A stretch of 32,000 bases of DNA from Planctomycetales bacterium (GTDB lineage: Bacteria > 4484-113 > JAFGCY01): contig CP060262.1 in assembly GCA_022646745.1 (NCBI GenBank), forward strand, positions 870,001 through 902,000, read 5' to 3'. Below the pieces are notes generated by a model. It was given only the letters and a program-made list of their open reading frames with translations, searched no databases and had not been told where the DNA came from. The position numbers and the translations under genes were made by a program. Positions 3-19,460 of this stretch are shown one piece after another. Positions within the stretch are counted from its first letter, which is position 1. Each line of letters starts with the position of its first letter.

Positions 3-704
3 GTGATGCAGGCTGCACAGCTGGCATCCGCGGGGATCGGCGAGGCCGCCACACAGTCGCTTCAGCATGAACGGCCGGCTGGCTGGCGCTCGAAGGAGTT
101 GCCGGGCCACGGCTACTGGGTGAATGTACGCGTCCGCCCGGTGGATGACCCGACTGGCCTCACACAGGAGGTGCTGGTTTCATTGGATGGCCGCGAGCGG
201 GATGCGCTGTACTGCGACAACATCACCCGCGGCTACCAGCAGGACGGGAACTTCATCTCCGCCTGGCATGTGCGCAACCTCGTCTGGGTGGTGAAGGATG
301 ACGCGCTGGATGAGCTGCTCTCCGGCGAGCCCTGGACGATTGAGCATCCCAAAGGAAGTTCAGACTGGCCGCAGGGCATGACCCATGCGGCCTTTGAGCG
401 CATCATTGGGAAGAGCACGAAGCTGACCGCCGGCGAGCTGCACATCTTCTGCTACAGCGACGCCGGCGACAGGCTGGAGATCGACATTGATGAGGTTGAC
501 AACAGCTACCGGGTGCAGGCGATGCTCGCCCCGGACCTGCCGCTGGCCGGCAGCCTGCTGAAGGAAATCGATGTGGACTCACGGCACAGTGACTACGCCG
601 AACTGACCCTGCAGGCCCGCCCGGGAGCGATCGGCTGGCTGGACCCCTTTGGCAACACGGTGGTGCTGGCCCCCGCAAGGGCCTCGGAACAGGAGGAGAA
701 GTGA
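3..704 (+). CDS. Hypothetical protein, member 1 of a tandem paralogue family (probably 5'-truncated by the window edge)
   Basis: The frame is open from the window edge and there is no signal peptide, so the true start is probably upstream. The TGA at 702-704 overlaps the next gene's start. It shares the ordered motif set (HGYWVNVRVRPVDDPTG ... ELHIFCYS) with the three downstream genes. Confidence 0.6.
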   Translation: MMQAAQLASAGIGEAATQSLQHERPAGWRSKELPGHGYWVNVRVRPVDDPTGLTQEVLVSLDGRERDALYCDNITRGYQQDGNFISAWHVRNLVWVVKDDALDELLSGEPWTIEHPKGSSDWPQGMTHAAFERIIGKSTKLTAGELHIFCYSDAGDRLEIDIDEVDNSYRVQAMLAPDLPLAGSLLKEIDVDSRHSDYAELTLQARPGAIGWLDPFGNTVVLAPARASEQEEK

Positions 705-1519
705 TGAAGCGGATGATGATGGCAATCACCGCCGGGCTGGCCGGCGGGCTGCTGCTGGCGAACCTGGCAACAGCGCAGGACGAGCTGGAGGGCAAGCAAC
801 CGCAGCCCGTCGGCGATGTCGGCTACCAGAGCTACACCGTGGAACTGCCGCGCAGGGCCTGGACGATCGGCATGCAGCTGCATGATGAGAATGGCGAGAT
901 AAGCGAGCAGAGCATCACCGTACTGGACGGCTTCGTGGCGGAGGCCATGAGCAGCAGCATGCGTGGCTACCAGTTGGACGACGAAAGCATGGGACAGGCT
1001 GTGGCGTATAAGTTCCAGATCTGGTTCGTGCCGGACAGCAAGCTTGAGGAATGGCAGGCTGGCGAGAAGGAGCGGGCTTACTTCGATCCATCCGGCCAGG
1101 CCATGATGAGCAGCACTGCAGAGAGCACCGGCCCCGGGGACGGGCAGCCGATGGGGCGGTACTTCAGTGATGACAATGGCCGCCGCGAGCTGCTGCTGGC
1201 CAATGCGCAGGAAATCCGCGTGGACGAGCTGCACATCTTCATCTATGCGCCGGAATACCCGCGGATTGACTTAAGCGTTGACAAGCTGGACTACCGGCAC
1301 TTCATCAACGGAGTTTTCAGCGAGGATGAGGACGTCTTGAAGGCCGAGGACATCCCGTTTGAGCTGGAGAAGATCGAGAGACCGAGCCATATCGCGGATA
1401 TCGTGCTGTTCACGGCGGGCGAGGACCTCGGCTTCATCACGGCGGATGGCGTTCGGATCGGCGATGAGCACTGGGGAAAGGCAGTGGAAGAAGTGGAGGA
1501 AGTGGAAGAAGTCAAGTAG
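704..1519 (+). CDS. Secreted hypothetical protein, tandem family member 2
   Basis: ATG 704 follows AGGAGGAG (691-698) and overlaps the upstream stop (GTGATG). The signal peptide is MKRMMMAITAGLAGGLLLANLATAQDE. Family motifs are RAWTIGMQLHDENGE and ELHIFIYA, and the tail is acidic (EEVEEVEEVK). Confidence 0.75.
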   Translation: MKRMMMAITAGLAGGLLLANLATAQDELEGKQPQPVGDVGYQSYTVELPRRAWTIGMQLHDENGEISEQSITVLDGFVAEAMSSSMRGYQLDDESMGQAVAYKFQIWFVPDSKLEEWQAGEKERAYFDPSGQAMMSSTAESTGPGDGQPMGRYFSDDNGRRELLLANAQEIRVDELHIFIYAPEYPRIDLSVDKLDYRHFINGVFSEDEDVLKAEDIPFELEKIERPSHIADIVLFTAGEDLGFITADGVRIGDEHWGKAVEEVEEVEEVK

Positions 1520-1601
1520 TCAACGAGTCAATGTGTCAACTGCGAGACACCGAGCTGTCGCATATTGACCCATTGACTAGGCGACTAAGTGACTTTATTA
1601 C
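1511..1601 (+). repeat. Composite 8-nt-period word array: (GTCAA N3)x4, ~26-nt spacer, (TGAC N4)x5
   Basis: GTCAA starts at 1511, 1519, 1527 and 1535. TGAC, with degenerate CGAC and TTAC, starts at 1566, 1574, 1582, 1590 and 1598. The stop codon TAG 1517-1519 lies inside the first array. GTCAATGTGTCAA (1527-1539) is complementary to TTGACCCATTGAC (1566-1578) at 12 of 13 positions. Confidence 0.8.
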
Positions 1602-1617
1602 TCCTAAGCCGCCGGAC

Positions 1618-1663
1618 ATCCAGGGCGGGGATTGAGCCGCAGGCGAGATCCACGGGCGGGGAT
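1618..1663 (+). promoter_or_regulatory. Direct repeat ATCCA(C)GGGCGGGGAT x2 upstream of the 1703 gene (candidate operator)
   Basis: ATCCAGGGCGGGGAT is at 1618-1632 and ATCCACGGGCGGGGAT at 1648-1663. The GGGCGGGGAT cores are 31 nt apart (about three helical turns). The repeat lies 40-85 nt upstream of ATG 1703. No function is known. Confidence 0.3.
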
Positions 1664-1702
1664 GTCAAATCGGCCGGCGGCGAAGAACGTATGGAGAATG
1701 AA

Positions 1703-2428
1703 ATGAAACTGATTCTGGCAACACTTGTGGCAATACTGATGGCAACCGCAGTCGCACTGGCGGAAGAGCCGACGGGAGTCAGCGAGAAGACGGAGATTGA
1801 TAAATCCATAGCTTACATGGACATGGACCAGTTCAGCGAAGAGCATTACCCTGTGCCGGGTGAAACCCGGGGCCTGTGGCATTTAAGGATCAGTGTGTAT
1901 GACGGAGAATCCAGCTCCCCCTTCAGTGAGAACATCATGTATCTCAATCCACACATGCCCGCCACTGCGACAGCCGGCAATCCGGGCTGGCAGTTCAGCC
2001 CAATGATCACCGATCCCGTTGACAGGCTGGGCACCGTGATCTGGATGGTCCCGGCTGGGCTGGATGCTGACTTCCAAGAGCACGGTCACCTTGACCTGCC
2101 AGAGCTGATCATTGGGGATGCACCTGCTGCGATGCCAACGCAGAAGCGCGAGCTGTTTGAGCAGCTGCTTGGGCGCAGTCAGCACATCCAGGTTGCCAAC
2201 CTGCATCTCTACCTGTTCAGTCCCTATAGGGGTCGTGCCGAAATCAGCCTCGGTTGGGAGGACAAGGACAGGACACAGGCAACCCGTCCGCCGGAATTCT
2301 ATCGCACAGCAGAACAGCGCGAGGCGGAGGAAGCCGCCGGGCTGAAACACGAGCGGGGAGCGATCCCAGTAGCGGACATCACCGTGTACTTTTCCAACGG
2401 CGGTGAGTGGGCCGGCGGCGACCACTGA
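1703..2428 (+). CDS. Secreted hypothetical protein, tandem family member 3, with a C-terminal GGEWAGG tag
   Basis: ATG 1703 is preceded by GGAGA (1693-1697). The track ORF starts at GTG 1589, but that extension is R/S/G-rich and runs through the intergenic repeat array. The signal peptide is MKLILATLVAILMATAVALAEEP. Motifs are RGLWHLRISVYDGES, WMVPAGLDADFQEHGHLDLP and NLHLYLFS, and the protein ends ...YFSNGGEWAGGDH. Confidence 0.75.
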   Translation: MKLILATLVAILMATAVALAEEPTGVSEKTEIDKSIAYMDMDQFSEEHYPVPGETRGLWHLRISVYDGESSSPFSENIMYLNPHMPATATAGNPGWQFSPMITDPVDRLGTVIWMVPAGLDADFQEHGHLDLPELIIGDAPAAMPTQKRELFEQLLGRSQHIQVANLHLYLFSPYRGRAEISLGWEDKDRTQATRPPEFYRTAEQREAEEAAGLKHERGAIPVADITVYFSNGGEWAGGDH

Positions 2429-2473
2429 CCATCTGACTGATTGACTAATTGACTTTGTGACTCTTTGACTTAC
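2426..2473 (+). repeat. (TGAC N4)x6 exact 8-nt-period array between a stop codon and the next RBS
   Basis: TGAC occurs at 2426, 2434, 2442, 2450, 2458 and 2466. The first TGA is the stop codon of the upstream gene. The array ends just before GGAGAGGG (2475-2482) and ATG 2488. Confidence 0.85.
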
Positions 2474-2487
2474 AGGAGAGGGACATC

Positions 2488-4089
2488 ATGAAACTGACAG
2501 GGATTCTGGCAATTGCCGTGGCAATGCTCTGCGCCGTCCATTCCACCGTACTGGCAGAGGAGCCGGACCGACAGACTGGCAAGTACTTCCACGTGACGCC
2601 TGAGGAGATGGAGGCGCGGCTGGCCGCCCAGTGGTGGCGCAAGGCCGGCGACCGGGTGCTGCCTCCGGCTGTCGAGCGGGAGGGAACCTGGATCCTCACG
2701 CTGGACCTGCAGGACGAAGGCGGCAGGCAGCTGCATCAGTCTGAGATGCTGATCCAGGCCAACAGTTTTGCCAGCAGCAAGTCCCTGCCGGTTTCCGGGC
2801 AGTATTCCGTCGGTGACTTCACCACGCTTGATGACTACCGCTTCCTGCTGTGGGCCTTCCCCTCGCAGTATGACGAGACCTTCCGCGAGTACGGCTACCT
2901 CGACTGGCCGAGCGGGCGGGAGGGCGTGAAGGTGACACGTGCGGATGGCAGTGAGATCGATCTCGGCCGGCCTGATCTGAGCGAGGAGCAGGTGCAGGAA
3001 CTGTTTGCGCAGATGCTCAAGCGGGCTGCGGTGCTGGAGTATGACGGGATGCGGATGTACATCTTCTCCAATGAGGCCAGACAGGCGCATATCAGGCTGG
3101 ACTGGGATGCCGGCATCAATCCGCAGCCCGTCACCAGCCCCGGGGCGAATGAGCAGCGTGTGGCCGAAATGAAGCAGCGTGCCATTCCGGCTGCGGAATT
3201 CACTCTCTACCTGGCTGGAGGCGAATGGGCTGGCGGAGAGACAGTGGCCGGTGGTGAGTGGTCAAGTGGAGGCACGATTGCCGGCGGTCAGTGGTCAGGC
3301 GGCGGCACGATTGCCGGTGGTGAATTCGCCGGTGGAGGCGATGTCGCTGAGACTGACACGGATGGTGGAGAGTGGGCCGGTGGCGGTGATTCTGCCAGCA
3401 GCAATGGGGGCCAGTGGGCCGGCGGCGGCGATCAGTTTGCCAATGCGCATCTGGCGGTGCAGGTGATGCAGGCGGAGAAGCGCGGCGATTTCAAGCCGAG
3501 CACCAGTGTTGCCGACAGGAACTGGTGGAGCAGCCTTGATCCGTCCATCCGGCCCGACCCATACACCAGCCAGGGCCGCTGGCTGCTGGACTTCAACCTG
3601 ATGGACGAGACGGGGCGGGTTGTCAGCGAAAGCAGCCTGCAGCTGATTGAGGGCTTCCCGGCACAGCTGAGCAATGTGCGCGGGCGCGGACAGGACAGCG
3701 ACCCGGACTATGGCAATCTCGAGGACTACTACCTGCTGGCCTGGGTGATCCCGGATGAACTGAATGCGGATTTCCTGCAGAGCGGCTACCTGGACTGGCC
3801 GGTACCCAATAGCGACAGGCTGGTTGTCGGGGAGGACGGTCAGTACATCGAAAGCAGCCCGCCGCAGCTCAAAGATGAACGGAAGCTTGCCCTGTTCAGC
3901 GAGGCGATGTCACACGCACACCACATGCTGATGGAAGGCCTGCACTTCTATGTGTTCTCCCCGCAGTCGGCATCCGCTGACTTCGAGCTGAAGTGGCAGG
4001 ATGGCATGCAGGGTGGCAATACCCGCGATGTTGCCAGCTTCAGTGTGAACTTTGCCAACGGCGGTGAGTGGTCTGGCGGGGAAAGCTAG
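2488..4089 (+). CDS. Secreted hypothetical protein, tandem family member 4 (two domain copies joined by an aromatic-glycine repeat linker)
   Basis: ATG 2488 has a GGAGAGGG RBS. The signal peptide is MKLTGILAIAVAMLCAVHSTVLAEEP. Two copies of the family motif set are present (EGTWILTLDLQDEGG..MRMYIFS and QGRWLLDFNLMDETG..GLHFYVFS). The central GG[EQ][WF]xGG repeats are encoded at 3217-3429, and the protein ends ...FANGGEWSGGES. Confidence 0.85.
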   Translation: MKLTGILAIAVAMLCAVHSTVLAEEPDRQTGKYFHVTPEEMEARLAAQWWRKAGDRVLPPAVEREGTWILTLDLQDEGGRQLHQSEMLIQANSFASSKSLPVSGQYSVGDFTTLDDYRFLLWAFPSQYDETFREYGYLDWPSGREGVKVTRADGSEIDLGRPDLSEEQVQELFAQMLKRAAVLEYDGMRMYIFSNEARQAHIRLDWDAGINPQPVTSPGANEQRVAEMKQRAIPAAEFTLYLAGGEWAGGETVAGGEWSSGGTIAGGQWSGGGTIAGGEFAGGGDVAETDTDGGEWAGGGDSASSNGGQWAGGGDQFANAHLAVQVMQAEKRGDFKPSTSVADRNWWSSLDPSIRPDPYTSQGRWLLDFNLMDETGRVVSESSLQLIEGFPAQLSNVRGRGQDSDPDYGNLEDYYLLAWVIPDELNADFLQSGYLDWPVPNSDRLVVGEDGQYIESSPPQLKDERKLALFSEAMSHAHHMLMEGLHFYVFSPQSASADFELKWQDGMQGGNTRDVASFSVNFANGGEWSGGES

Positions 4090-4091
4090 AC

Positions 4092-4122
4092 GAGCAATGA
4101 GCAATGAAGATTGAGCAATGAG
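4092..4122 (+). repeat. AGCAATGA word array placing TGA every 7 nt directly after a stop codon
   Basis: TGA occurs at 4098, 4105, 4112 and 4119 (exact 7-nt spacing, so all three frames are hit) within GAGCAATGAGCAATGAAGATTGAGCAATGAG. The array begins 3 nt after the TAG stop at 4087-4089. Confidence 0.7.
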
Positions 4123-4707
4123 CCCAGAAGCAGAATGAGAATGAGAAGCAGAAGGAGGATGAGCAGACGGAGCGCGTAGCGCAGCCATGCGAAGGATTGG
4201 CAAAGCTGCGCATGGATCGAAGGCGGAATGGGAGGTGCGCAATCACGCCTGCGGCGTGACGCACAATGGGATGGAGGATGGGGGGCAGCAGAAACAGAAT
4301 GAGAACGAGAAACGGGACCGGCGTCACCCGGTGACGCCAGCACGCTTTCTGCGGCATTCGAGCAAGATCTTACGCGAGTTAGGCAGCGATTTGCATTCTT
4401 CGTGCCTTCGTGACCAGATCATGGTTGTGTGAACCACCAAGCCACCAGGACACCAAGATAGAGCCGATTGTTGCCATTGTTGTTTGACACGATTACTTGG
4501 CAGCATCCACTTCATGGCGCGAAGCGCGCGCCGGTACGGTCATTCTTTTGGCCCCCCCTTGAACTGCTTAGCGCCTTAGCGTCAAACAGAACCATGCCGG
4601 ATTTCCTCGTTGCCAGTCCAGTGCAGCGAGGGATGCCAGTACAGGTAAGGAAGTATCCGGCGGCAGGGCGCAGCCGCAACTGACAACTTCTTCCACTTCT
4701 CCTCTGA

Positions 4708-6451: not shown

Positions 6452-8005
6452 TCAGAACTGGCTGCCGAAGGCCAGGCCCCAGGAGTTGTCACTGCCGTCC
6501 CAGGCCTGCCCGATCCAGCCACCGACCTTGAAGCCGCCGTAGATCGGCAGCTTGAACAGCCCGCCGACGCCCCAGGAGTTGAGCGATTCCATGTCATCCA
6601 GGGTCTCGCCGATGAAGCCGTTGTCACTGAACACATAGGCCTCGTAGTTGCGAGATTTGTCCAGCGTGCAGCGGTACTCCGCGCGGGCCCCGACGAACTT
6701 GGTGGCCGCATAGGTGTCGTAGGTGTAGCCGCGCACATTGCCGGCCCCGCCCGCGATCAGCTCGCTGGCCCAGGGCACCTTGCCATCGGCGAGGTCGGCC
6801 TGCAGCTGCACGGACAGGCTGGCGGTGTCGAAGAAATCGCGGATGTCATTCTCCACGCCGATGCCCGGCTCCAGCTCGGTGCGCACCTGCGGCCCGGCGA
6901 TGTTGTGCACCGGGATGTAGCGCCGCAGGTCGAGCCGGAAGCGCTGTGAGTCGAAGTTGCCGAAGGTCTTGGATGCGCGCGCGCTGTAGCTCCAGCCCTT
7001 CTTCGGCAGGAAGGTGGAGTCGCGCTCGCCGCTGCTCCAGGTGATGTAGGTCTCCACGCCGTTGCCCGTCGGGGAGAAGTCCCCGCGCGGGGCCACGCCG
7101 CTGCCGTTCGGGTTGCCGGCGTAGACCCAGGCCTCGTGCCGGAAGATGCCGGCGCCGACGCCCCAGCTGCCCGGCAGCCGGCCGAGCGGGGCCTCGCCAT
7201 TGAAGCCGTAGGCGTAGTCCACCCGCGAGACCCGGGTGCGGATCTCCGCCACCTCGCCGATGGTGTCACGCTTGCGCGTGCGCCATGTATTGGCAACGCT
7301 TGCGCTGTAGCTCTCGGAATTGCGCCCGCTGTTCAGTGTGTTGTCAGTGAAGGAGAAGCTGCCGTAGGGGTCGTCCGCCTCCTTGGTGGCGACGCCGATG
7401 CTGGCGGACAGCTGCTTGTTGCTGTTGTCGAAGAAGAAGTCGTTGTAGCGCACCCCGACCAGCCCGCCGGCCAGCGAGGTGTAGCTCGGCTCCGGCACCC
7501 AGTTCTGCGGGTTCTGCGAGGTGTAGCGGATGTCGATGTTGACACTGCCGTCCTTGTTCTCCCAGACCTGCCAGCTCAGTGAGGAGAAGATCTGGCGGCT
7601 GTAAGCCTGCTTGGCCAGCCTCAGGAAGCGCTCCTCAATGTAGGGCGCGCCCTGCGGCACCTGCAGGATCAGCACGGCGAGCTCCGGGTCCAGCGTGCCG
7701 GTATGCTCCACCACCCGCACGTCCGCGATGAAGTGCATCCGGCCCTCATCGTAGGCATCGGCGTATTCGCGCAGGTCCTCCGCCGTGAGGTAGGCCAGCG
7801 CCTGGGGGTCGATCAGCTGGAAGATGAACTGCGGCAGGACATCGAGCACATCATCGGGGATTTCCTCGTAGGTGATGGCAGCTGCCGGGCGCGCGCAGGC
7901 CAGCATGCAGACAAGCACGAGCAATGCCCTGACGGCTATCTCACCAGCCCTGATTGGCTCCTCCTCCTCGGACAGCGATTCTAGCACGCAGGCCAGACCA
8001 CACAT
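6452..8005 (-). CDS. Omp85/BamA-family outer-membrane beta-barrel protein (surface antigen D15-like)
   Basis: The hydrophobic N-terminus is ...VRALLVLVCMLACARPAAA. An alpha/beta N-terminal (POTRA-like) region is followed by alternating beta-strand sequence. The motif GGAGNVRGY and the aromatic C-terminus ...GLAFGSQF are typical of Omp85 barrels. The exact start is uncertain. Confidence 0.7.
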   Translation of the reverse strand: MCGLACVLESLSEEEEPIRAGEIAVRALLVLVCMLACARPAAAITYEEIPDDVLDVLPQFIFQLIDPQALAYLTAEDLREYADAYDEGRMHFIADVRVVEHTGTLDPELAVLILQVPQGAPYIEERFLRLAKQAYSRQIFSSLSWQVWENKDGSVNIDIRYTSQNPQNWVPEPSYTSLAGGLVGVRYNDFFFDNSNKQLSASIGVATKEADDPYGSFSFTDNTLNSGRNSESYSASVANTWRTRKRDTIGEVAEIRTRVSRVDYAYGFNGEAPLGRLPGSWGVGAGIFRHEAWVYAGNPNGSGVAPRGDFSPTGNGVETYITWSSGERDSTFLPKKGWSYSARASKTFGNFDSQRFRLDLRRYIPVHNIAGPQVRTELEPGIGVENDIRDFFDTASLSVQLQADLADGKVPWASELIAGGAGNVRGYTYDTYAATKFVGARAEYRCTLDKSRNYEAYVFSDNGFIGETLDDMESLNSWGVGGLFKLPIYGGFKVGGWIGQAWDGSDNSWGLAFGSQF

Positions 8006-8168: not shown

Positions 8169-9215
8169 TTGAAGCGCCTCAACACTTTTGCGATTTCCAT
8201 CCTGATCATCATCCTTGCCGCGCTGGCGGCTTCCTGCGGTGGCAGCACCATCGGTGTCGGCCAGCCGGAGGGCATCAACGACGATACACAGGGCAATGGC
8301 GCCATCGAGCAGCAAATCCCCGAGGAGTTCAATGCTGACGAGCTCCCAATGCTGCCCTTCGACGGCGGTGACGAGGAGCAGCAGATCGTGCTGCAGGCCA
8401 AGGGCGCGAGCTGGGTTTCCAGCCCGGACCACCTCACTCCGGTGCTGCACCACAACGCCGGCGTGGACCCCGGTGACCCGAACTGCTACCTGCTGAAGGG
8501 CCGCAAGCCGGTCTTCACCCACGTGCCGCAGGGCCCGGACTTCGCCTACGCGCTCTACCAGATCCCGGTCGGCGCGCTTGAGACTGACCTGCTGAGCATG
8601 AAGGTCGAGGCCGCCCCCGGTGCCGCCGGTGACTTCTACTTCGGCGCGATCGCCAACTACAGCGGCATGGTCTGGGACTTCTTCGGACCGGAAGGCGCCG
8701 CCCCGACGTGGAGCGTTGACATGCAGAGCCTGGGCTATGACTTCACCAGCCCGGCCGGCAACCTCTACGTGCTGCTGCTGGTGCCTGCGGCCCAGAGCCT
8801 GCACGTGACCGACATCGTGCTGGACTACAAGGACCGCGACAAGCCGGTCGACCCGAACCCGGAGATCTGGAACGTCTGGGGCAAGGCCTATGAGGACTAC
8901 GCCACCGGCAGCGCGCATGGCGGGATGGACGTGATCTTCCGCGACATCAACACCAGCGCCTGGTACGTCACGATGGCTGACGCCGCCGGCAACTGGGGCA
9001 TGAACCTGCCGACCGGTGAGTACGACTTCTGGGTGATCGGCAACGAGATGCTGCTCGACGTGAGCGGCCCGGTGGCCCTGATCGACTACCTGCCCGACGG
9101 TGTCGGCACCCGCCTCGACCTCGACGGCAGCGGCCAGATCGTCTACCAGGGCAGCAACGCGGTCTACAACGGCAGCGTGGTGCCGATGCCGCTGATCACC
9201 GCCAACAGCTTCTAG
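8169..9215 (+). CDS. Lipoprotein with the shared N-terminal module and a C-terminal carboxypeptidase-regulatory-like (prealbumin-fold-like) domain
   Basis: The TTG start at 8169 follows AAGGAG (8156-8161). The lipobox is ILAALAASCGG. The shared module runs FAYALYQ...FYFGAIANYSGMVWDFF...GNLYVLLLV. The C-terminal pattern MADAAGNWGMNLPTGEYDFWV is present. Confidence 0.8.
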   Translation: MKRLNTFAISILIIILAALAASCGGSTIGVGQPEGINDDTQGNGAIEQQIPEEFNADELPMLPFDGGDEEQQIVLQAKGASWVSSPDHLTPVLHHNAGVDPGDPNCYLLKGRKPVFTHVPQGPDFAYALYQIPVGALETDLLSMKVEAAPGAAGDFYFGAIANYSGMVWDFFGPEGAAPTWSVDMQSLGYDFTSPAGNLYVLLLVPAAQSLHVTDIVLDYKDRDKPVDPNPEIWNVWGKAYEDYATGSAHGGMDVIFRDINTSAWYVTMADAAGNWGMNLPTGEYDFWVIGNEMLLDVSGPVALIDYLPDGVGTRLDLDGSGQIVYQGSNAVYNGSVVPMPLITANSF

Positions 9216-9437: not shown

Positions 9438-11156
9438 CTACATGCCCGGCGGCGGGGGTCCGTGGACGAACACCACCAGCGCGAGCAGGCTGTTGTCATC
9501 TGTGATAACCGCATCGACAGTCACATGGCTGCCGATCTCGACGTCATCCCATGATCCGGGACCTTCCGGCAGCAGCCAGGCGGTCTGCGGATCGTGCTTG
9601 AAGGTCCAGGCGTCATCGGTGTTGAAGCCATGCACCTCGAAGCTGTTCTCGTTGGCACTGACGAACTGGCCGTCGACGGTGATGTACTCACCGCCACCGC
9701 CGCCACCACCGCCGCCGCCGTTGTCACCGAAGTCCATCACGACATCGGCGATCATCGCGCCATCCGGGGTGATCTGGCCGTCAACATGCACGAAGTCGCC
9801 GATGGCAACATCCTGCCAGCCACCCTCCATGCCGTCAGGCAGCAGGAACAGGGTGTGGCCGTCATGGCCGACCGTGAACGGTGCGCCGGCGGGACCCTGG
9901 GAGACGCTGATGGTCTCGGGGCCGATCGCGGTCACTTCGCCATCCAGCACGAAGGTCTGGCCACCGCCACCTCCGCCGCCGCCACCGCCGCCGTTGCCAC
10001 CGTTCTCGATGACAACGAAGCGGGCAAGCCACTGGCCGTCGGGGGTGATGTCACCTTCGGCATGCACGCAGTCGCCGGGCATGATGTCGCTCCACACAGC
10101 CGGACTGCCGTCAGCGTTGACGAACAGTGTGGCCTCATCGTGGAAGATCATCGGCGGGGCGAACCCGGCGGTGCCGTCGACCGTGAAGAACTCCGGCGTG
10201 ATGTCGATCACGGGGCCGTCGATGGTGAACATCTCACCGCCGCCGCCGTTGCCATCGACCATCTGCACGCTGAGCGCGATGCAGCCGCCGCCGATCACCG
10301 GGTCGTCCGCCATGTAGCCATCGACCGCGGCGAACATGCCGGGTGCGAAGGCATCCGGGCCGACCTCGTTGCCAGCCATGTCGAACCACAGGGTATCCGC
10401 ATTGTGGATGAAGTAGTGGCCGGCCACGCTGATGCTGAGGTCGTCAATGTGGTCAATCGGGCCGATCGCGAAGCAGGGGTCACCCGGGCCGCCGCCCGGT
10501 CCGCCGCCGTTGCGCTCACCGGTGGTGATCGTGGCCTGGTCGACGTAGAGGCTCTTGCCGCCATCAACCAGCACGACCCAGTACAGGTTGCCAAGCTGGC
10601 TGATGAACTGGCTCTCGCCCTCACTGAACTCGACGTTCACCTCCGGCAGCTGGGTCTCGATCACCCAGTGCCAGCGGTTGTCATCGAAGCTGCCGAGCGC
10701 CACGTAGTAGGTGGTGTCGAGGTCCTGCGGGCGGGTCTCCAGCGCGAAGCTGAGCACCTTCTGCCCCTGCAGCCCGTCCGCCTTGTACAGCGACCAGGCT
10801 GCTTCCTCAGCACTGCTCTCGAGCAGCAGGCTCGTACCATCGACGGTGCCGCCGGAAGCGACGAGGAAGTCGCTGCCGTTGTAGGTCTTCACCGCTGATG
10901 TACTGCGACTGCCGCTGTCAGCGACTGTCCCGCTGTCCTGCGGCACGCTGGGAAGCGGAGTCCCCAGTGGCAGCAGTTCGCCCCCGGAAGTTCCGGTGGA
11001 CTGGCCCGTGGAATTGATGCTATCGAGGGAAGACCCCGCATCCGCCGACAGTCCCGCTCCGCCTCCGCAAGACGCCAGCAGCATTGCCAGCACAAGCGGG
11101 AAGACGAAGATGGCCAGCCGGTGAAGCGACCCCTTCTCCCCTTGGTGATTCTTCAT
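9438..11156 (-). CDS. Lipoprotein: shared N-terminal module plus four DUF5666-like modules separated by poly-Gly linkers
   Basis: ATG 11156 has a strong GGAGGTG RBS. The lipobox is LAMLLASCGGG. The shared module runs AAWSLYKADGL...YYVALGSFDDNRWHW...GNLYWVVLV. Four repeats of the pattern x-[FI]-x-[VI]-DG-x-[VI]...G-D/S-x-V-x-V-[DE] are separated by Gly runs of 4, 10 and 11 residues. Confidence 0.85.
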   Translation of the reverse strand: MKNHQGEKGSLHRLAIFVFPLVLAMLLASCGGGAGLSADAGSSLDSINSTGQSTGTSGGELLPLGTPLPSVPQDSGTVADSGSRSTSAVKTYNGSDFLVASGGTVDGTSLLLESSAEEAAWSLYKADGLQGQKVLSFALETRPQDLDTTYYVALGSFDDNRWHWVIETQLPEVNVEFSEGESQFISQLGNLYWVVLVDGGKSLYVDQATITTGERNGGGPGGGPGDPCFAIGPIDHIDDLSISVAGHYFIHNADTLWFDMAGNEVGPDAFAPGMFAAVDGYMADDPVIGGGCIALSVQMVDGNGGGGEMFTIDGPVIDITPEFFTVDGTAGFAPPMIFHDEATLFVNADGSPAVWSDIMPGDCVHAEGDITPDGQWLARFVVIENGGNGGGGGGGGGGGQTFVLDGEVTAIGPETISVSQGPAGAPFTVGHDGHTLFLLPDGMEGGWQDVAIGDFVHVDGQITPDGAMIADVVMDFGDNGGGGGGGGGGEYITVDGQFVSANENSFEVHGFNTDDAWTFKHDPQTAWLLPEGPGSWDDVEIGSHVTVDAVITDDNSLLALVVFVHGPPPPGM

Positions 11157-11343
11157 AAGCTCACCTCCTGATTGGATAATCAGATTCTATGCATCCCAGC
11201 CGGGAAAGAAAGGGTCGGAAGCGACCCAATATTGCTGGGACAGTTCAGTCGACATGTTTTCAGCAAGTGTTTATCCGGATTGGAGAAACACTGTATTACC
11301 TATTTAATTCTACAACCGAAAGCCCTGTCCGGCCACCGCAAGC

Positions 11344-11389
11344 GTCCCAGTCACTTTCCACCTTGACTGTCCCAGTAACTTTGGGACAG
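11344..11389. promoter_or_regulatory. Candidate operator: direct repeat GTCCCAGT(C/A)ACTTT x2 overlapping the inverted repeat CTGTCCCA-N7-TGGGACAG
   Basis: GTCCCAGTCACTTT is at 11344-11357 and GTCCCAGTAACTTT at 11369-11382. The inverted-repeat arms are at 11367-11374 and 11382-11389. A further TGGGACAGT lies at 11236-11244. All sit in the divergent intergenic region 29-75 nt upstream of the MocR-like regulator start. No binding data exist. Confidence 0.35.
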
Positions 11390-11417
11390 TACTGGTAGAC
11401 TGTAAACACCGGATGAA

Positions 11418-12950
11418 ATGAACCTGACCATAGACAAGCAGGGCAGTGAACCCGTCTACGAGCAGATCCGCCGCCAGATCGAGGAACTGGTCGGCGAGGG
11501 CCTGCTCACGGCGGGCACGCGCATTCCTTCCGTACGCCAGCTGGCGGCCTCGCTTGGCCTATCCAAGAATACCGTCAGTGTGGCTTATGAGGAACTGGCG
11601 GCCCGGCATATCATCGAAACCAAACCCGGCAGCGGCACCTTCATCTGTGCGCGGCCGGAAGTGGCCACCGGAGTCAACCTCGGCCGGCGCAACGAGATGA
11701 ATGGCGAGCTGTCGGACTTCCCGCCGATGCGCTGGGAGCCCTACTTCTTCCGCAGCGAGTTCTTCGGCATGCTGCCCGGCAAGCGCGTGAGTGAGATGAT
11801 CCGCTTCACGCACAACTACCCGGACCCGGAGCTGTTCCCCTTCGAGCGCATCAAGCAGGTCGCCACCAACATGCTGTGGAACCCGCAGAGCTTCTTCTTC
11901 GACATCTCGCACCCGCAGGGCTACCAGCCGCTGGTGGAGCACCTCGAGAAGGAAATGGCGCTGGCCGGGATCCCGATGGCTGAGGGCCAGAACGACATCA
12001 TCATCACCGGCGGCTTCCAGCGCGCGCTCTCGCTGATCCTGGACTTCATCGTGCGCCCAGGCCAGAAGGTGGCGATCGAGAGCCCGAGCTACTCCAACCT
12101 GCTCAACCTGCTGATCGCCAAGCACATCGACTACCTGCCTGTGCCGGTTGACAGCGAGGGGATGGACACCGAGTTCCTGGCAACGGCGATGGCACGCGGG
12201 GAGGTCTGCGCGGTGATCTGCACGCCGGACTTCCACAACCCGACCGGGATCTGCATGAGCCGCGAGCGCCGCGAGCACCTGCTGCGCCTGGCGATGCAGC
12301 ACCGGGTGCCGATCCTTGAGGATGACCAGGGTCGCAAGCTGCGCTTCGAAGGCGAGGACAATCCACCGCTGAAGTCGATGGACTACGGCGGATACGTGAT
12401 CCATGCCAGCAGCTATGGAATGTGCTTCCTGCCAGGCCTGCCGATCGCCTGGGTGACGACGCCGGCCGCGATATCGGCACCATTGCTTGACGCCAAGCTG
12501 GCTGCTGACCGCGGCGACAGCTACTTCCTGCATGTGCTGATGCACAACTTCATCGTCAAGGGACATTTTGACAGGCACATCCGCAAGTCCCAGCGTGAGT
12601 ACAAGCGCCGCCGGGATGCCATGGTGGAGACATTGTCAAAGTACCTTCCAAGCGAGTGCCGCTACCGTGTACCGCAGGGCGGCTTCACGATCTGGCTTGA
12701 GCTGCCCCAGCCGATGAATTCGATGAAAGTACTGGAACACAGCCGGCGGGCCGGGGTTGACTTCGTGCCGGCCCCGATAGTGATGCCTGACCGTAAGGAC
12801 TGCAATTGCCTGCGCCTGAGTTATTCGCGCAATGGTGTCGAGGATATTCGCTCGGGAATCCGCACGCTATGTGATGTGATCCGTAGCTGCGTCGACAATC
12901 CGGACCTGATGGAGGGTCCGGAAATGAAATATGAGGATCTGCTGAAATGA
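11418..12950 (+). CDS. MocR-subfamily GntR transcriptional regulator (wHTH fused to a fold-type-I aminotransferase-like domain) with degenerate PLP-site residues
   Basis: The N-terminal GntR wHTH is YEQIRRQIEELV...IPSVRQLAASLGLSKNTVSVAYEELAARHIIETKPGSGTFI. The C-terminal aminotransferase-like motifs are VAIESPSYSN, TPDFHNPTG, ILEDDQ and SSYGMCFLPGLPIAW. The last motif aligns without gaps to the usual FSKxLxPGLRxGY. Confidence 0.9.
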   Translation: MNLTIDKQGSEPVYEQIRRQIEELVGEGLLTAGTRIPSVRQLAASLGLSKNTVSVAYEELAARHIIETKPGSGTFICARPEVATGVNLGRRNEMNGELSDFPPMRWEPYFFRSEFFGMLPGKRVSEMIRFTHNYPDPELFPFERIKQVATNMLWNPQSFFFDISHPQGYQPLVEHLEKEMALAGIPMAEGQNDIIITGGFQRALSLILDFIVRPGQKVAIESPSYSNLLNLLIAKHIDYLPVPVDSEGMDTEFLATAMARGEVCAVICTPDFHNPTGICMSRERREHLLRLAMQHRVPILEDDQGRKLRFEGEDNPPLKSMDYGGYVIHASSYGMCFLPGLPIAWVTTPAAISAPLLDAKLAADRGDSYFLHVLMHNFIVKGHFDRHIRKSQREYKRRRDAMVETLSKYLPSECRYRVPQGGFTIWLELPQPMNSMKVLEHSRRAGVDFVPAPIVMPDRKDCNCLRLSYSRNGVEDIRSGIRTLCDVIRSCVDNPDLMEGPEMKYEDLLK

Positions 12951-15079
12951 GACACACAGCCATCTACACGATTCTGGCAACGGCATTTCTGCTCAGTGCC
13001 TGTGGGGGCGGACAGGGCAGCGGTGAGTCCACTGGCAGCTATGCACTGGAGGCCCTGCATGGCACCAGCAGCGCCAGCCTGCAGCTCGGGATGGAGCGGG
13101 GCAGTGCCGTGGTCAGCGTGGACTCACCTGGCAGCGATGGCAGTTTCTTCAGCCTCAGCCTGCCGGAGAACATGGTTCCCGCCTCGCTGGACTGGCTGGA
13201 TGGCAACGGCAACCCGCTGGACAGCGGGATGCTGACATTCACCCATTTTGAGGATGGCCGGCTCAGTGCAGCTGTGATGCCGCTGGCCGATGCAGCTTCC
13301 GGGCCAGTCAGCCTGCGAGTTCAACCTGCACTCGACGCAGCGGCCCGCCTGGCCAGTGCCACTGATGAGGAAATCCGCGAGGAGCCAGTGCCCTTCACCT
13401 TCATGGACTTTGACCCGGCTGGCGGCTCAGTGCTGCTCAGCTGGCCGGCCTGGCTGCCCGGTGACTACGACCTGAGCGGCATTGTCGGCATCAATGACAT
13501 CACCCCGCTGGGCAAGCACTTCGGCTCCGCCAGTGGCGGCAATGGCTGGACCCAGGACGACCCGCTGCACTGGATCGATGGCAACCGCGACGGGGAGATC
13601 AACTCCGTTGACTTGAGCGTGATCGGCCAGCACTTCAACGATGAACTGATCGGTTTCCGCGTCTACCATGACGGCGAACTGTACCAGGGCATGGACGAAA
13701 GCATGCTGAACGTACTGAGCGGTGACCCGCAGGGCCCTGGCCTGCCCCGCCGCCACTTCCTGCACCTGCCGGGCATTGAGTCACCCGACCTGCTTGAGCT
13801 GCGCAGCGTCTACCACCATCACGGGCTCGGCTCAGGTGGCAACAACCCTGACCTCGAGGTGCATATCTCGATTGACGGCGTGGAGCTGGCTGACAACGAA
13901 TTCGGCAACAAGACCGGTACCCGCGTGATCAAGCCGATTGAGGATGTCAACGGCGCACGTGACATCATCAGCACGCCGGAGAGCGAAAGCAGCTCGCTGG
14001 CCCGCTTCCGCAGCGTGCCGCGCGGGCAGGAGTACCTGCTGGACATCGTCTACGAACCGCTGGTGAGTCCCTTCGGCAGCGAGCTGCCTGACAACCCGGT
14101 GGTGCAGGGTGGCGACGATGCCGGCAAGGTGGTCACCTCCGTGTCCTTCCGCCTGCCGCAGCAGTACAGCCGCAGCGTGATGAACATCAACATCCACTAC
14201 CTGCCGCAGCCCGATGGCAGTTACTTCGCCGAGCTGAATGCCAGCATTGACCACGGCAGTGGCGTGAGCGAGTACTCCGCGCTGCTGGACTACAACGGCG
14301 GCGTGCTGCGCCGTGACAGTGACAACGACGGCAGCTTCACGGGTGAGGTCGAATTCGAGGACAGCGACCGCGACTGCGTCAGCAACCAGCTGGTGGAGGA
14401 GATCTTCTTCCCCGGCGTCGAGCCGCCGCAGCAGGGCTACATCCATGGCGTGTTCGACGGCCTCGTGGAGTCGATCGACTTCATTGCCTCCGAGATCACG
14501 ATGGTGCCGGGCAGCATGCAGTTCTGGAGCGACGGCGCAATCCGCGAGGACCGTACCGTGCACTTCAGCGAGAATGCCGAGTTCATCGGATTCGCGGACA
14601 TCCGTTCGCTGGCTCCGGGAGATCCGGTGCACATTGAGATGTACCGCCTGGAGGACAATGGAGACACGGGCAATATCCCCGCCGGCGTATCCTGGGCGGA
14701 GCTGATCCATGCACTGGACCAGAACTTCAGTGAGTACTGGATCCAGGCCGAGCTGCAGGAGAACAGCGAGTTCGTCGCGATCAGCGTCGGCCGGGCTGGT
14801 GGACCGCTGGACGGAGCCTACCCGCAGTACCTGATCGCGGTGCGCGATGAGTTCAGCGGGGATTACGAGGAGCTGCCCTACGGCGAAGTCGTAACCGGAT
14901 TCATCTACCTGCCGCTCTGGCCTGACCACCTCTATACGATCAGCCTGCTTGGGGTGGCACTTGACGGCAAGCGCGTGCTGCTGGCGGATACCCAGGTCTA
15001 CATTGACCCGGAGCTGTTCTGGGACGGCTTCGGTGACCCGCCGGGCGGCAATCCGCCGATCGGCGGACCGGGAGTCTGA
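12947..15079 (+). CDS. Lipoprotein with dockerin-like repeats and a DUF5666-like segment, hypothetical
   Basis: ATG 12947 overlaps the regulator stop (ATGA). The lipobox is TAFLLSACGGG. The dockerin-like pair is GDYDLSGIVGINDITPLGKHFG ... DGNRDGEINSVDLSVIGQHFN. A later segment (IHGVFDGLVESIDFIASEITMVPG...LAPGDPVHIEMYRLEDNGD) resembles the DUF5666-like modules elsewhere in the window. Confidence 0.85.
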   Translation: MRHTAIYTILATAFLLSACGGGQGSGESTGSYALEALHGTSSASLQLGMERGSAVVSVDSPGSDGSFFSLSLPENMVPASLDWLDGNGNPLDSGMLTFTHFEDGRLSAAVMPLADAASGPVSLRVQPALDAAARLASATDEEIREEPVPFTFMDFDPAGGSVLLSWPAWLPGDYDLSGIVGINDITPLGKHFGSASGGNGWTQDDPLHWIDGNRDGEINSVDLSVIGQHFNDELIGFRVYHDGELYQGMDESMLNVLSGDPQGPGLPRRHFLHLPGIESPDLLELRSVYHHHGLGSGGNNPDLEVHISIDGVELADNEFGNKTGTRVIKPIEDVNGARDIISTPESESSSLARFRSVPRGQEYLLDIVYEPLVSPFGSELPDNPVVQGGDDAGKVVTSVSFRLPQQYSRSVMNINIHYLPQPDGSYFAELNASIDHGSGVSEYSALLDYNGGVLRRDSDNDGSFTGEVEFEDSDRDCVSNQLVEEIFFPGVEPPQQGYIHGVFDGLVESIDFIASEITMVPGSMQFWSDGAIREDRTVHFSENAEFIGFADIRSLAPGDPVHIEMYRLEDNGDTGNIPAGVSWAELIHALDQNFSEYWIQAELQENSEFVAISVGRAGGPLDGAYPQYLIAVRDEFSGDYEELPYGEVVTGFIYLPLWPDHLYTISLLGVALDGKRVLLADTQVYIDPELFWDGFGDPPGGNPPIGGPGV

Positions 15080-17777: not shown

Positions 17778-19460
17778 ATGCGACACATATTGCCAATCCT
17801 GATACTGCTGCTTTCAATCGCCTGCTCCTGCGGCGGCCAGCAGGCTGCCCCGGCCGGGCAGGACTTGCCGCCGGCTGTCACCGCAGCGCAATCACAGCAC
17901 GGCCTGCCCGCCCTCGACACCCTGCGCGAATCCAGCCTGGCCTTCAGCCTGGAGCAGGATGGCAACATGGCCACGGCGCAGTCGCCGACCGCGATCGTGG
18001 ATGGCAGCGAGCTTCTGCTGCCCAGCGGCTCCAACTTCGCCAGCTGGGGGATCTGGAGCTTCGACTCGGGCTATGACTACCCGACGATGCTGAACGCGGT
18101 TGTCAATGTGCCCGATGGCGACGAGTTCTGGCTGGCTGTGTCCGATTACGAGGACGGCCGCTGGCAGTTCAGCGGACCCTACGGCAGTGGCGTGGCAATC
18201 GAGCTGAGCAGTGCCAACAGGTCCCCGAAGCACAATCTGCATGTCGCCGTGCTGGCGATGGAAGGCAGCGCGGTCAGCGTGCAGAAGCTTGTACTGGCCA
18301 CTGACAACGGCTGGAAGGTGATGGATCTCGGGATCCCCATCAGTTCGACCGCCCTGGAACTCATCAGTGCCTGCATGATCGGAGGCCGCCCGGCCGTTGC
18401 CTACGTCTCTGAGGATGGCGCGCTCAGCTACCTGCGCGCCTCCGATCCGCTGGCGCATGACTTGAATGCCTGGCAGGATGAGCCGGTCGGCCTGATCGGT
18501 GGCGTTGGTTCATTCAGCGACATCAGCCTGTGCAGCATTGATGGCAAGCCGGCGGTTGCCCTGATCAGGGGAACTGACCAATGGAACATCTATTATGCCT
18601 GTTCTAGCACCGAGGAAGCTGCCCCTGCAGACTGGCAGATAAATCCGAACCCACTTGCCAGCGGCAGCAACTACTCGCCCAACTTCAGCATGGCGGACGT
18701 CGGTGGCCATCCGGCGATTGCCTATGTCGACACGAATGAGGAGCTGGCCTACATCCGTGCCTCAACAGGCAACGGCTCCACGGCCTCGGACTGGAGCACA
18801 CCGCTGATCCTTGAGGTCAATGACGAACCGAATGAGCACGTGAATCGCCCGCAGCTGATGATGGACCGGGGCAAGCCGCTGGTCAGCTACATCGGGCACT
18901 CCAGCGAGGTCTTCCTGCGCTACAGCGATTCCGCTACTGGAGCAAAACTGTCCAACTGGCTGCCGCGCAGCACCGTCGGCCTGTGGAATGACGGTGACTG
19001 GGAGGACAAGGCAATGTTCATGCATGAGGGTAACCTTGTGTTCATGCTGTACGCCGATGACAGCAACAACAGCAGCAGCTTTGAGCCGGACTTCATTCAT
19101 TACTACTTCCGGGACACCTATGAAAAACAGACCGGCTGGGAGGGAAAGCATGAGGTGGCTGAAATCGATGGCGGCTCATTCCACGCATCCCTGTCCGGTG
19201 CCAGCATCAACGGCATGCCGGCGGCCTGCTACCGCAGCAACTACTCGCCGGAGCTGACATATTCCTTCTCCGATCCGGACCATCCTGCCTACACCTCCGT
19301 CTGGGAACACCAGATAGTCAACGACGGCTTCCAGAACGGCATGCTGCTTGATACTGAGCTGATGGAGAATGCCGAAGGCCAGCCCTGCATCCTGTACTGC
19401 GCGTATGACTTCCAGCTGGATAGCAAGAGGCTGTACTTCGCCGTGCGCCGCGAACCCTGA
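17778..19460 (+). CDS. Lipoprotein: shared N-terminal module plus a roughly 7-bladed propeller-like G-x-P-A-[VI]-x-Y repeat domain
   Basis: ATG 17778 has a GGAGGAA RBS. The lipobox is LLLSIACSCGG. The shared module runs ASWGIWSF...FWLAVSDYEDGRWQF...HNLHVAVLA. Seven repeats are GGRPAVAYVSEDGALSYLRAS, DGKPAVALIRG, GGHPAIAYVDTNEELAYIRAS, RGKPLVSYIGHSSEVFLRYS, EGNLVFMLY, NGMPAACYRS and EGQPCILYCAY. Confidence 0.85.
   Translation: MRHILPILILLLSIACSCGGQQAAPAGQDLPPAVTAAQSQHGLPALDTLRESSLAFSLEQDGNMATAQSPTAIVDGSELLLPSGSNFASWGIWSFDSGYDYPTMLNAVVNVPDGDEFWLAVSDYEDGRWQFSGPYGSGVAIELSSANRSPKHNLHVAVLAMEGSAVSVQKLVLATDNGWKVMDLGIPISSTALELISACMIGGRPAVAYVSEDGALSYLRASDPLAHDLNAWQDEPVGLIGGVGSFSDISLCSIDGKPAVALIRGTDQWNIYYACSSTEEAAPADWQINPNPLASGSNYSPNFSMADVGGHPAIAYVDTNEELAYIRASTGNGSTASDWSTPLILEVNDEPNEHVNRPQLMMDRGKPLVSYIGHSSEVFLRYSDSATGAKLSNWLPRSTVGLWNDGDWEDKAMFMHEGNLVFMLYADDSNNSSSFEPDFIHYYFRDTYEKQTGWEGKHEVAEIDGGSFHASLSGASINGMPAACYRSNYSPELTYSFSDPDHPAYTSVWEHQIVNDGFQNGMLLDTELMENAEGQPCILYCAYDFQLDSKRLYFAVRREP

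Follow-up and report, generated by a model that had tools for sequence, protein, structure and literature searches.

We analysed a 32-kb window (32,000 nucleotides (nt); contig CP060262.1, positions 870,001 to 902,000) from a Planctomycetales bacterium, in which four co-directional paralogous genes, g1, g2, g3 and g4, occupy positions 3-4089. The g4 protein consists of two domains of the same family joined by a linker that contains six copies of a Trp-in-glycine heptad, GG[EQ][WF]..G, and a single copy of this heptad forms the C-terminal tag of both g3 and g4 (Table 1). A first-pass annotation of the window had reported six units in the protein at 2488-4089, the first four exactly 11 residues apart, and the same unit at the ends of two proteins (2397-2428 and 4057-4089). 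A six-frame scan combined with translations of the open reading frames (ORFs) confirmed all of this.

Successive units of the g4 linker are 33, 33, 33, 48 and 42 nt apart and are separated, in order, by the spacers ETVA, GTIA, GTIA, GDVAETDTD and GDSASSN. The tag of g3 follows directly on the last beta-strand (ADITVYFSN) and the protein ends in ...VYFSNGGEWAGGDH; g4 ends in ...NFANGGEWSGGES. A 15-nt string, AACGGCGGTGAGTGG, is common to the DNA of the two terminal tags. The annotation had placed the unit at every domain end; we found this to hold for the g3, g4N (first domain of g4) and g4C (second domain of g4) types, but g1 and g2 do not carry it.

Table 1. The g1-g4 cluster and the heptad units, in window coordinates.
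Feature	Positions	Strand	Basis or remark
g1, first paralogue, N-terminus outside the window, without heptad, ends ...RPGAIGWLDPFGNTVVLAPARASEQEEK	3-704	+	ORF list, paralogue comparison
g2, second paralogue, signal peptide, without heptad, ends ...AGEDLGFITADGVRIGDEHWGKAVEEVEEVEEVK, an acidic (EEV)n tail	701-1519	+	ORF list, comparison
g3, single-domain secreted paralogue, 241 amino acids (aa), ends in one heptad tag	1703-2428	+	ORF list, P0013
g3 C-terminal tag GGEWAGG, then DH	2399-2425	+	Heptad at 2399-2419
g4, two-domain secreted protein, 533 aa: signal peptide, g4N-type domain, repeat linker, g4C-type domain, terminal tag	2488-4089	+	ORF list, tree, AlphaFold2 (AF2)
g4 signal peptide and g4N-type domain	2488-3216	+	Orthogroup found in tag-bearing clade only
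g4 repeat linker (six heptads)	3217-3429	+	Scan, Tandem Repeats Finder (TRF), composition, AF2
g4 linker heptads	3217-3237, 3250-3270, 3283-3303, 3316-3336, 3364-3384, 3406-3426	+	Regular-expression scan
g4C-type domain	3430-4059	+	Stand-alone gene with own signal peptide and no tag in sister clade
g4 C-terminal tag GGEWSGG, then ES	4060-4086	+	Heptad at 4060-4080

Only one further match to the unit was found in the window, at 14650; a stop codon lies four codons upstream of it, and the long ORF 12947-15079 is read in another frame. We estimated chance occurrence with 20,000 composition-preserving shuffles. The mean expectation was 0.008 units for the whole g4 protein (7 observed) and 0.04 for the linker (6 observed), and the highest number in any shuffle was 2. 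At the DNA level, TRF detected a tandem repeat for units 2-4 only (period 33, 2.3 copies, 85% matches). The heptad is a real feature, neither a product of chance nor of recent slippage.

Conservation and predicted disorder of the heptad

A position profile was compiled from 26 units in four genomes. Gly was found at position 1 in 25 units and at position 2 in all 26. Position 3 was invariably E (14) or Q (12), and position 4 was aromatic in 25 of 26 (21 W, 3 F, 1 Y). Position 5 was A or S in 25 units, and Gly occupied positions 6 and 7 in 23 and 24 units, respectively. Taken together, the four Gly positions use all four glycine codons. Among the eight units of the window the proportion of synonymous differences (pS) was 0.71, near saturation, while that of nonsynonymous differences (pN) was 0.11 (pN/pS 0.15); mean nucleotide identity of the cores was 74%. 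At the level of DNA the units are thus old; what has been maintained is their protein sequence.

Comparison between genomes gave a similar picture. The g3 tag was identical at 9 of 9 residues between the window and the related locus L006, with protein bodies only 44% identical, and at 6 of 9 residues where the bodies shared 33% or 37%. Between the window and L006 the g4 linker was 90% identical and the neighbouring N-domain 56%. The spacers between units are free to vary in both sequence and length. With a conserved core and divergent flanks, the heptad is, as judged from these alignments, a short linear motif under purifying selection. The first-pass annotation had proposed a recognition, anchoring or modification motif rather than a passive linker: the position profile and the pN/pS of 0.15 argue for more than a passive spacer, but a role in sorting, anchoring or modification was not supported. 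It had also held that a motif found only in these genes, with no conservation in relatives, would speak against such a role; in the DNA scanned the heptad is indeed confined to this family, yet it is conserved in the relatives.

The physical character of the region was assessed from composition and AF2 models. The 70-residue linker contains 39% Gly and 10 acidic residues, with no basic residue, no Pro and one aromatic per unit. In the g4 model, 10-residue blocks across the linker had a predicted local distance difference test (pLDDT) score of 22-29, and residues 245-344 were all below 50; the linker had no secondary structure, the next element being a short helix at 341-344 on its far side. 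The g4 terminal tag likewise scored below 50. For g3, the final five residues of the model (217-221), where the tag ends, were below 50, and the mean over the last 11 was about 28. Both the linker and the tags are predicted to be disordered.

The family, its clades and the origin of the linker

We searched 1.84 billion representative proteins (clusters at 50% identity) exhaustively with HMMER and obtained 17 matches, of which about 13 are true family members, the weaker ones being repeat proteins or very large multi-stretch proteins. This makes it a tiny family. Its sources are uncultured metagenome-assembled genomes (MAGs) labelled 'UBP7' (HKST-UBA01, HKST-UBA03), AC1.30, 'Planctomycetales Ww346' and 'Bacteria_4484_113', plus one Joint Genome Institute (JGI) sample. 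A profile search of JGI metagenome contigs with g2 found no relative, and a literature search for 'GGEW' returned nothing relevant. A phmmer search of 5.8 billion proteins with the linker alone recovered no match, g4 itself included, presumably through composition filtering, and so carries no information. Three UBP7 MAGs are reported from saline activated sludge (PMC8495973) and might be among the present genomes. The cluster is syntenic in all family genomes (seven syntenic loci), and about five genomes carry the heptad.

A neighbour-joining tree of all domain copies resolved five orthogroups: g1, g2, g3, g4N and g4C. In one clade (the window, L001/L014, L006/L015, L017 and L007/L016) the unit was present on every g3, g4N and g4C copy. 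In the sister clade (L010, L013 and L009) no copy carried it, and the proteins end in ...LDSPxVNE, ...FLDARER or ...YFPENE. Tag-bearing genomes are the 4.1-Mb contig with P0003, GCA_041395205.1, HKST-UBA01, HKST-UBA03 and GCA_024645305.1, and tag-less ones are the 4484-113 JAFGCY01 bins and JGI 3300061720. The distribution of the two g4 domain types between these clades is given in Table 1.

Within the tag-bearing clade the g4N-type domain was found in four architectures. In the window and in L006 it is followed by six units and a g4C domain, and in P0001/L001 by seven units plus one degenerate unit and then a g4C domain. L017 has a four-unit terminal tail and no second domain, ending in ...GGEWAGGEG. 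In L007 (g4, equivalent to P0015) the domain is encoded by a stand-alone gene with one terminal unit and no second domain, and the protein ends in ...HFDNGGQYSGGD. Together with the tandem repeat seen by TRF, these differing unit numbers among close relatives (6, 7 plus a degenerate one, 6, 4 and 1) have the form of a slippage-type tandem repeat. On the simplest reading, the linker would have arisen by multiplication of the tag that ends the g4N-type domain and by joining of the downstream g4C-type gene to it, in either order.

The L017 locus (MAG UBP7 HKST-UBA03) was compared with L006 (6822-7917 versus 10812-14288, respectively). The g3 gene is absent from L017. Its g4 stops after the fourth unit; two units, the C-domain, the tag of the C-domain and a DDE transposase are gone, and the breakpoint lies inside a heptad. 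Identity between the two loci is lost immediately after the fourth unit and returns only past the g4 stop and the transposase. Removal of the DNA from an internal unit up to the terminal tag would fit this pattern, an assembly collapse being a lesser possibility. The g1-g4 locus as a whole would then illustrate how a motif of a terminal tail can multiply into a linker between domains, and how its repetition afterwards permits loss of a domain.

The bodies of g3 and g4N also differ from the rest of the cluster in their divergence. Between the window and L006, nucleotide identity was 52-73% for these bodies (1800-2355 and 2590-3184) and 84-95% for the linker with the C-domain (together 3186-4081) and for the flanking genes. 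The pattern was reversed against L001, where synonymous divergence (dS) was 0.024 for g3 and 0.10 for g4N but 0.23-0.30 for g1, g2 and g4C. Such opposite mosaics indicate recombination or exchange of the g3-g4N segment. In the same comparison with L001, the ratio of nonsynonymous to synonymous divergence (dN/dS) was 0.11-0.52 for all cluster genes, so the genes are real and constrained.

Possible roles of the heptad

The heptad region is a low-complexity tail or linker with a conserved linear motif, present in a handful of uncultured genomes. It probably serves both as a flexible tether and, through its aromatics, as a multivalent docking element. We give an about even chance to a reading in which the unit G-G-[E/Q]-[W>F,Y]-[A/S]-G-G, with an acidic residue after it in most cases, is a short linear motif specific to this lineage and makes weak multivalent contact with a partner from within a disordered tail. 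The motif would be carried on a flexible, acidic, Gly-rich disordered tail directly after the last beta-strand of the g3- and g4-type domains. Its Gly and acidic spacers would provide reach and keep the tether flexible and non-sticky, while the regularly displayed Trp, Phe or Tyr with its E/Q neighbour would offer a weak, repeatable contact (a 'sticker' or docking peptide) to another paralogue of the cluster or to an envelope component. Amplification of the g4N-type terminal tag by slippage or unequal recombination, with joining of the downstream g4C-type gene, would raise both valency and tether length. As a docking epitope, the heptad would provide a peptide tag that is compact and repeatable and comes from an uncultured phylum, together with a handle on the function of an unannotated four-gene cluster of secreted proteins; failing that, it is a low-complexity feature restricted to one lineage, and its reach is limited.

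Disordered, Gly-rich repeats with one regularly spaced aromatic, variable copy number and free spacers are known from FG-nucleoporins and elastomers ('sticker and spacer'), and the heptad linker resembles them by analogy. It differs in that its carriers are bacterial, secreted and strongly acidic, have 1-7 units and use Trp with E/Q in place of Phe. The closest functional precedent for a docking epitope, also by analogy, may be the TolB box, DG[ST]GW, which lies in the natively disordered Gly-rich translocation domains of group A colicins and whose Trp anchors in a beta-propeller pocket (PMC2821528). Both present a Trp in a Gly frame, for the heptad within a segment that is predicted, from a shallow alignment, to be disordered, and locally [ND]-G-G-[EQ]-W can be set beside D-G-[ST]-G-W. 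In the heptad, however, the Trp is preceded by E/Q and not by Gly, many units start with Ala instead of Asp, and none of the 26 units matched DG[ST]GW. The TolB box is moreover single and N-terminal, whereas the heptad is repeated and C-terminal or interdomain, and heptad carriers have signal peptides and no colicin domains. Because the consensus differs, we regard this as an analogy and not as membership. A stricter version, in which the heptad would be a multimerisable C-terminal docking tag lacking a transmembrane (TM) segment, a TolB-box-like epitope whose receptor or assembly partner exists in the tag-bearing clade only, seems unlikely to us; if it were true, the two-domain fusion through the amplified tag would record an interaction with that receptor.

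Several points weigh against a docking role. No partner was found for the heptad. When domain columns were examined for covariation with tag presence, one weak column only was recovered, so there is no sign of a domain pocket for the tag and binding to its own domain is unsupported. The all-or-none clade pattern is suggestive but not statistically strong, as just one phylogenetic split divides the two clades and the pattern is effectively one contrast. Since the sister clade does without the tag, the core function of the family does not depend on it. The AF2 models are shallow (13 sequences; pLDDT 53-65), and a low-complexity segment of any kind would be expected to score as poorly as the linker does. 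Finally, the scan for units covered about 100 kb of lineage DNA, and further carriers may exist elsewhere in the genomes.

Several of these observations would also suit a passive entropic linker or tail, which would serve only length, flexibility and solubility, with the aromatic retained for compaction or protease resistance and no specific partner. Predicted disorder, unit numbers and spacer lengths that differ among close relatives, a sister clade that functions without the tag, the failure to find a partner and a convergent W/G/acidic linker in an unrelated eCIS_core-like protein all fit it, and ordinary slippage-generated linkers likewise show a detectable DNA tandem repeat, varying copy number and disorder. 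We nevertheless consider it rather doubtful: E/Q is held in 26 of 26 units and the aromatic in 25 of 26 while synonymous sites saturate, the linker is conserved above its neighbouring folded domain (90% versus 56%), and the single seven-residue copy at a free C-terminus (g3, g4 and the stand-alone L007 g4) joins nothing. Clear purifying selection on the core and the presence of a single-copy terminal tag on stand-alone domains also set the heptad apart from slippage linkers in general. A mainly DNA-level role, in which homology arms for swapping or deleting domain bodies would be formed by the 5' signal-peptide region and by the last strand and tag at the conserved 3' end, is improbable. It would account for the mosaic identity between the window and L006, for the dS contrast with L001 and for the loss in L017 of exactly the stretch from an internal unit to the terminal tag; but with only 57-86% identity over 21 nt and saturated synonymous sites, the units of any one genome would recombine poorly, and conservation is at the amino-acid and not the DNA level. 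Exchange of this kind is also compatible with the docking and tether reading as a side effect.

The remaining rivals assign the heptad to a class of signal or fold that is already known. A sorting, anchoring or processing signal with dedicated machinery, a C-terminal tag without TM segment but with a role like that of GlyGly-CTERM, PEP-CTERM or LPXTG, is suggested by the C-terminal placement on three domain types, by the strict conservation of a short motif and by the all-or-none pattern, as expected with a cognate factor in one clade only. Short, lineage-limited motifs at the extreme C-terminus of secreted proteins are indeed common to this heptad and to the tags of rhombosortase (GlyGly-CTERM), exosortase (PEP-CTERM), sortase (LPXTG) and the type IX secretion system (T9SS). 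We judge such a role quite unlikely. As the annotation had noted, the heptad does not match the sorting signals that it named and no TM segment is present: only 1-2 acidic or polar residues separate it from the stop (DH, ES, EG or D), with no hydrophobic or basic tail. The motif, TM segment and basic cluster that characterise GlyGly-CTERM, PEP-CTERM and LPXTG proteins were thus not found together, no NCBIfam or Pfam sorting model matched, and a 9-residue tag without a match to TIGR04183/Por_Secre_tail bears no relation to the 80-100-aa fold of the T9SS C-terminal domain. In three species the mature two-domain protein has kept its internal copies whole, sister orthologues lack the tag, and a single protein family carries it: in a six-frame scan no other ORF of the window or of about 100 kb of non-redundant related-locus DNA contained the unit, including the other predicted secreted proteins. 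The annotation had suggested looking for a co-occurring processing enzyme, and none (peptidase, transpeptidase or sortase-like) was found in the seven syntenic neighbourhoods. Moreover, the heptad is presumably not an export or sorting signal since the proteins already have N-terminal Sec-type signal peptides. An RTX-like calcium-binding beta-roll or a solenoid of 11-residue turns would fit the four units at an exact 11-residue period and their richness in Gly and Asp/Glu, and RTX nonapeptides (GGxGxDxUx), like choline-binding, cell-wall-binding or GW repeats, are Gly- and aromatic- or acid-rich tandem repeats of secreted bacterial proteins. The heptad differs from all of these in period, consensus, irregular spacing and predicted lack of structure. 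Its period of 11/11/11 breaks to 16 and 14 residues, spacers differ between orthologues, AF2 predicts no strands, there is no match to PF00353 or, at E <= 0.01, to any other Pfam family such as the CW_binding (about 20 aa) or GW (about 80 aa) repeats, and single terminal units could not form a roll, so that a beta-roll is very improbable. Hardly credible is a substrate like those of ribosomally synthesised and post-translationally modified peptides (RiPPs), with several cores for modification or excision and the folded domain as leader. Repeated, near-identical short cores with Gly flanks, an invariant Trp and an E/Q neighbour recall one, but the proteins have Sec signal peptides, single-copy tags dominate and the seven loci lack radical-SAM, peptidase, cyclase and transporter genes.

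Other features of the cluster and its neighbourhood

N-terminal Sec-type signal peptides were recognised by inspection on g2, g3 and g4, and for g1 they were seen in the full-length orthologues P0004 and L001 7408-8208. The ORF list had started g3 at a GTG codon at 1589 (279 aa), which is too long; P0013 (241 aa) and all orthologues support the ATG at 1703. The g3 orthologues and P0013 begin with MKLIL..., and the g3 signal peptide is MKLILATLVAILMATAVALA. In place of the heptad, g1 and g2 have G-x-[IL]-G-[WF] and, behind it, a conserved segment of greater length. The g2 orthologues (window 1480-1516; P0005, P0009, P0011 and P0012) end in a low-complexity acidic (E-E-V)n-K tail, for example AVEEVEEVEEVK, of a length class conserved across genomes, and g1 terminates in ...QEEK. 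As these ends differ from the heptad tags, each paralogue type has its own acidic disordered C-terminal tail.

No match to Pfam, NCBIfam or PADLOC was found for g1-g4 or the small ORFs upstream; the Pfam threshold for cluster proteins was E <= 0.01, and the NCBIfam scan of g2, g3 and g4 gave 0 families. The cluster domain was modelled by AF2 as an alpha/beta fold with modest confidence (pLDDT 64.6 for g3). Foldseek searches of the PDB with the g3 and g4 models gave no match at E <= 0.001, and a profile search against PDB sequences yielded nothing below E 0.78.

The 59-nt spacer between g3 and g4 (2429-2487) is a run of TGAC-containing octamers (TGACTGAT TGACTAAT TGACTTTG TGACTCTT TGACTTAC) that ends in the ribosome-binding site AGGAGAGGG. 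Purine-rich short tandem repeats, GAGCAAT x4.6 and AGAAGCAGAAGGAGAATG x2.1, lie directly 3' of the g4 stop (4092-4163 and about 4290-4315). Similar sequence follows the g4 stop in L017; the repeats have no Rfam match, as is true of the whole window, and do not form a convincing terminator.

One or two small membrane-protein genes precede g1-g4 in the related loci, and the cluster is succeeded on the opposite strand by a small gene and by genes for a dihydroorotase-like amidohydrolase and an Omp85-like protein. A PQQ-like propeller is encoded upstream in L001, L007 and L009. The Omp85/BamA-like protein adjoins the cluster in both clades and gave only a weak match to TIGR03303 (E 0.0045). It is among the large ORFs of the window without a Pfam family, namely 6452-8005 (-), 8169-9215 (+), 12947-15079 (+) and 17778-19460 (+). 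PKD-repeat and DUF5666 proteins are also encoded in the window. In L001, 5' of the cluster and beyond the left edge of the window (1337-4397), we found three paralogous lipoprotein-like ORFs of 363, 366 and 182 aa. They have Trp/Gly-rich segments such as WGGNWNNG...WGKKWGGGF in common, with no Pfam match and without the heptad.

A double-unit DNA pattern (GG[EQ]WxGG, four residues, GG[EQ]W) gave 0 matches in viral contigs and 11 in metagenome contigs, none of them in a related family; these were simple GGEWS repeats, a His/Trp/Gly peptide, chance matches and one convergent eCIS_core-like linker. The last is in a soil-metagenome ORF (L021 857-2017 (-), 71% GC) of metalloprotease type, with a weak eCIS_core/DUF4157 match and an HExxH motif, where an acidic Trp-glycine linker (GDQWSAG...GGDWSGGGADAGGEWSGGGGDAGGEWSAG) lies upstream of the domain. 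The His/Trp/Gly matches (L022 3001-3045 and L027 272-316) fall in a 95-aa ORF that consists largely of His/Trp/Gly repeats (GGQWHGGGHWHGGHHGGHWHGGHW...) and may encode a metal-binding peptide.

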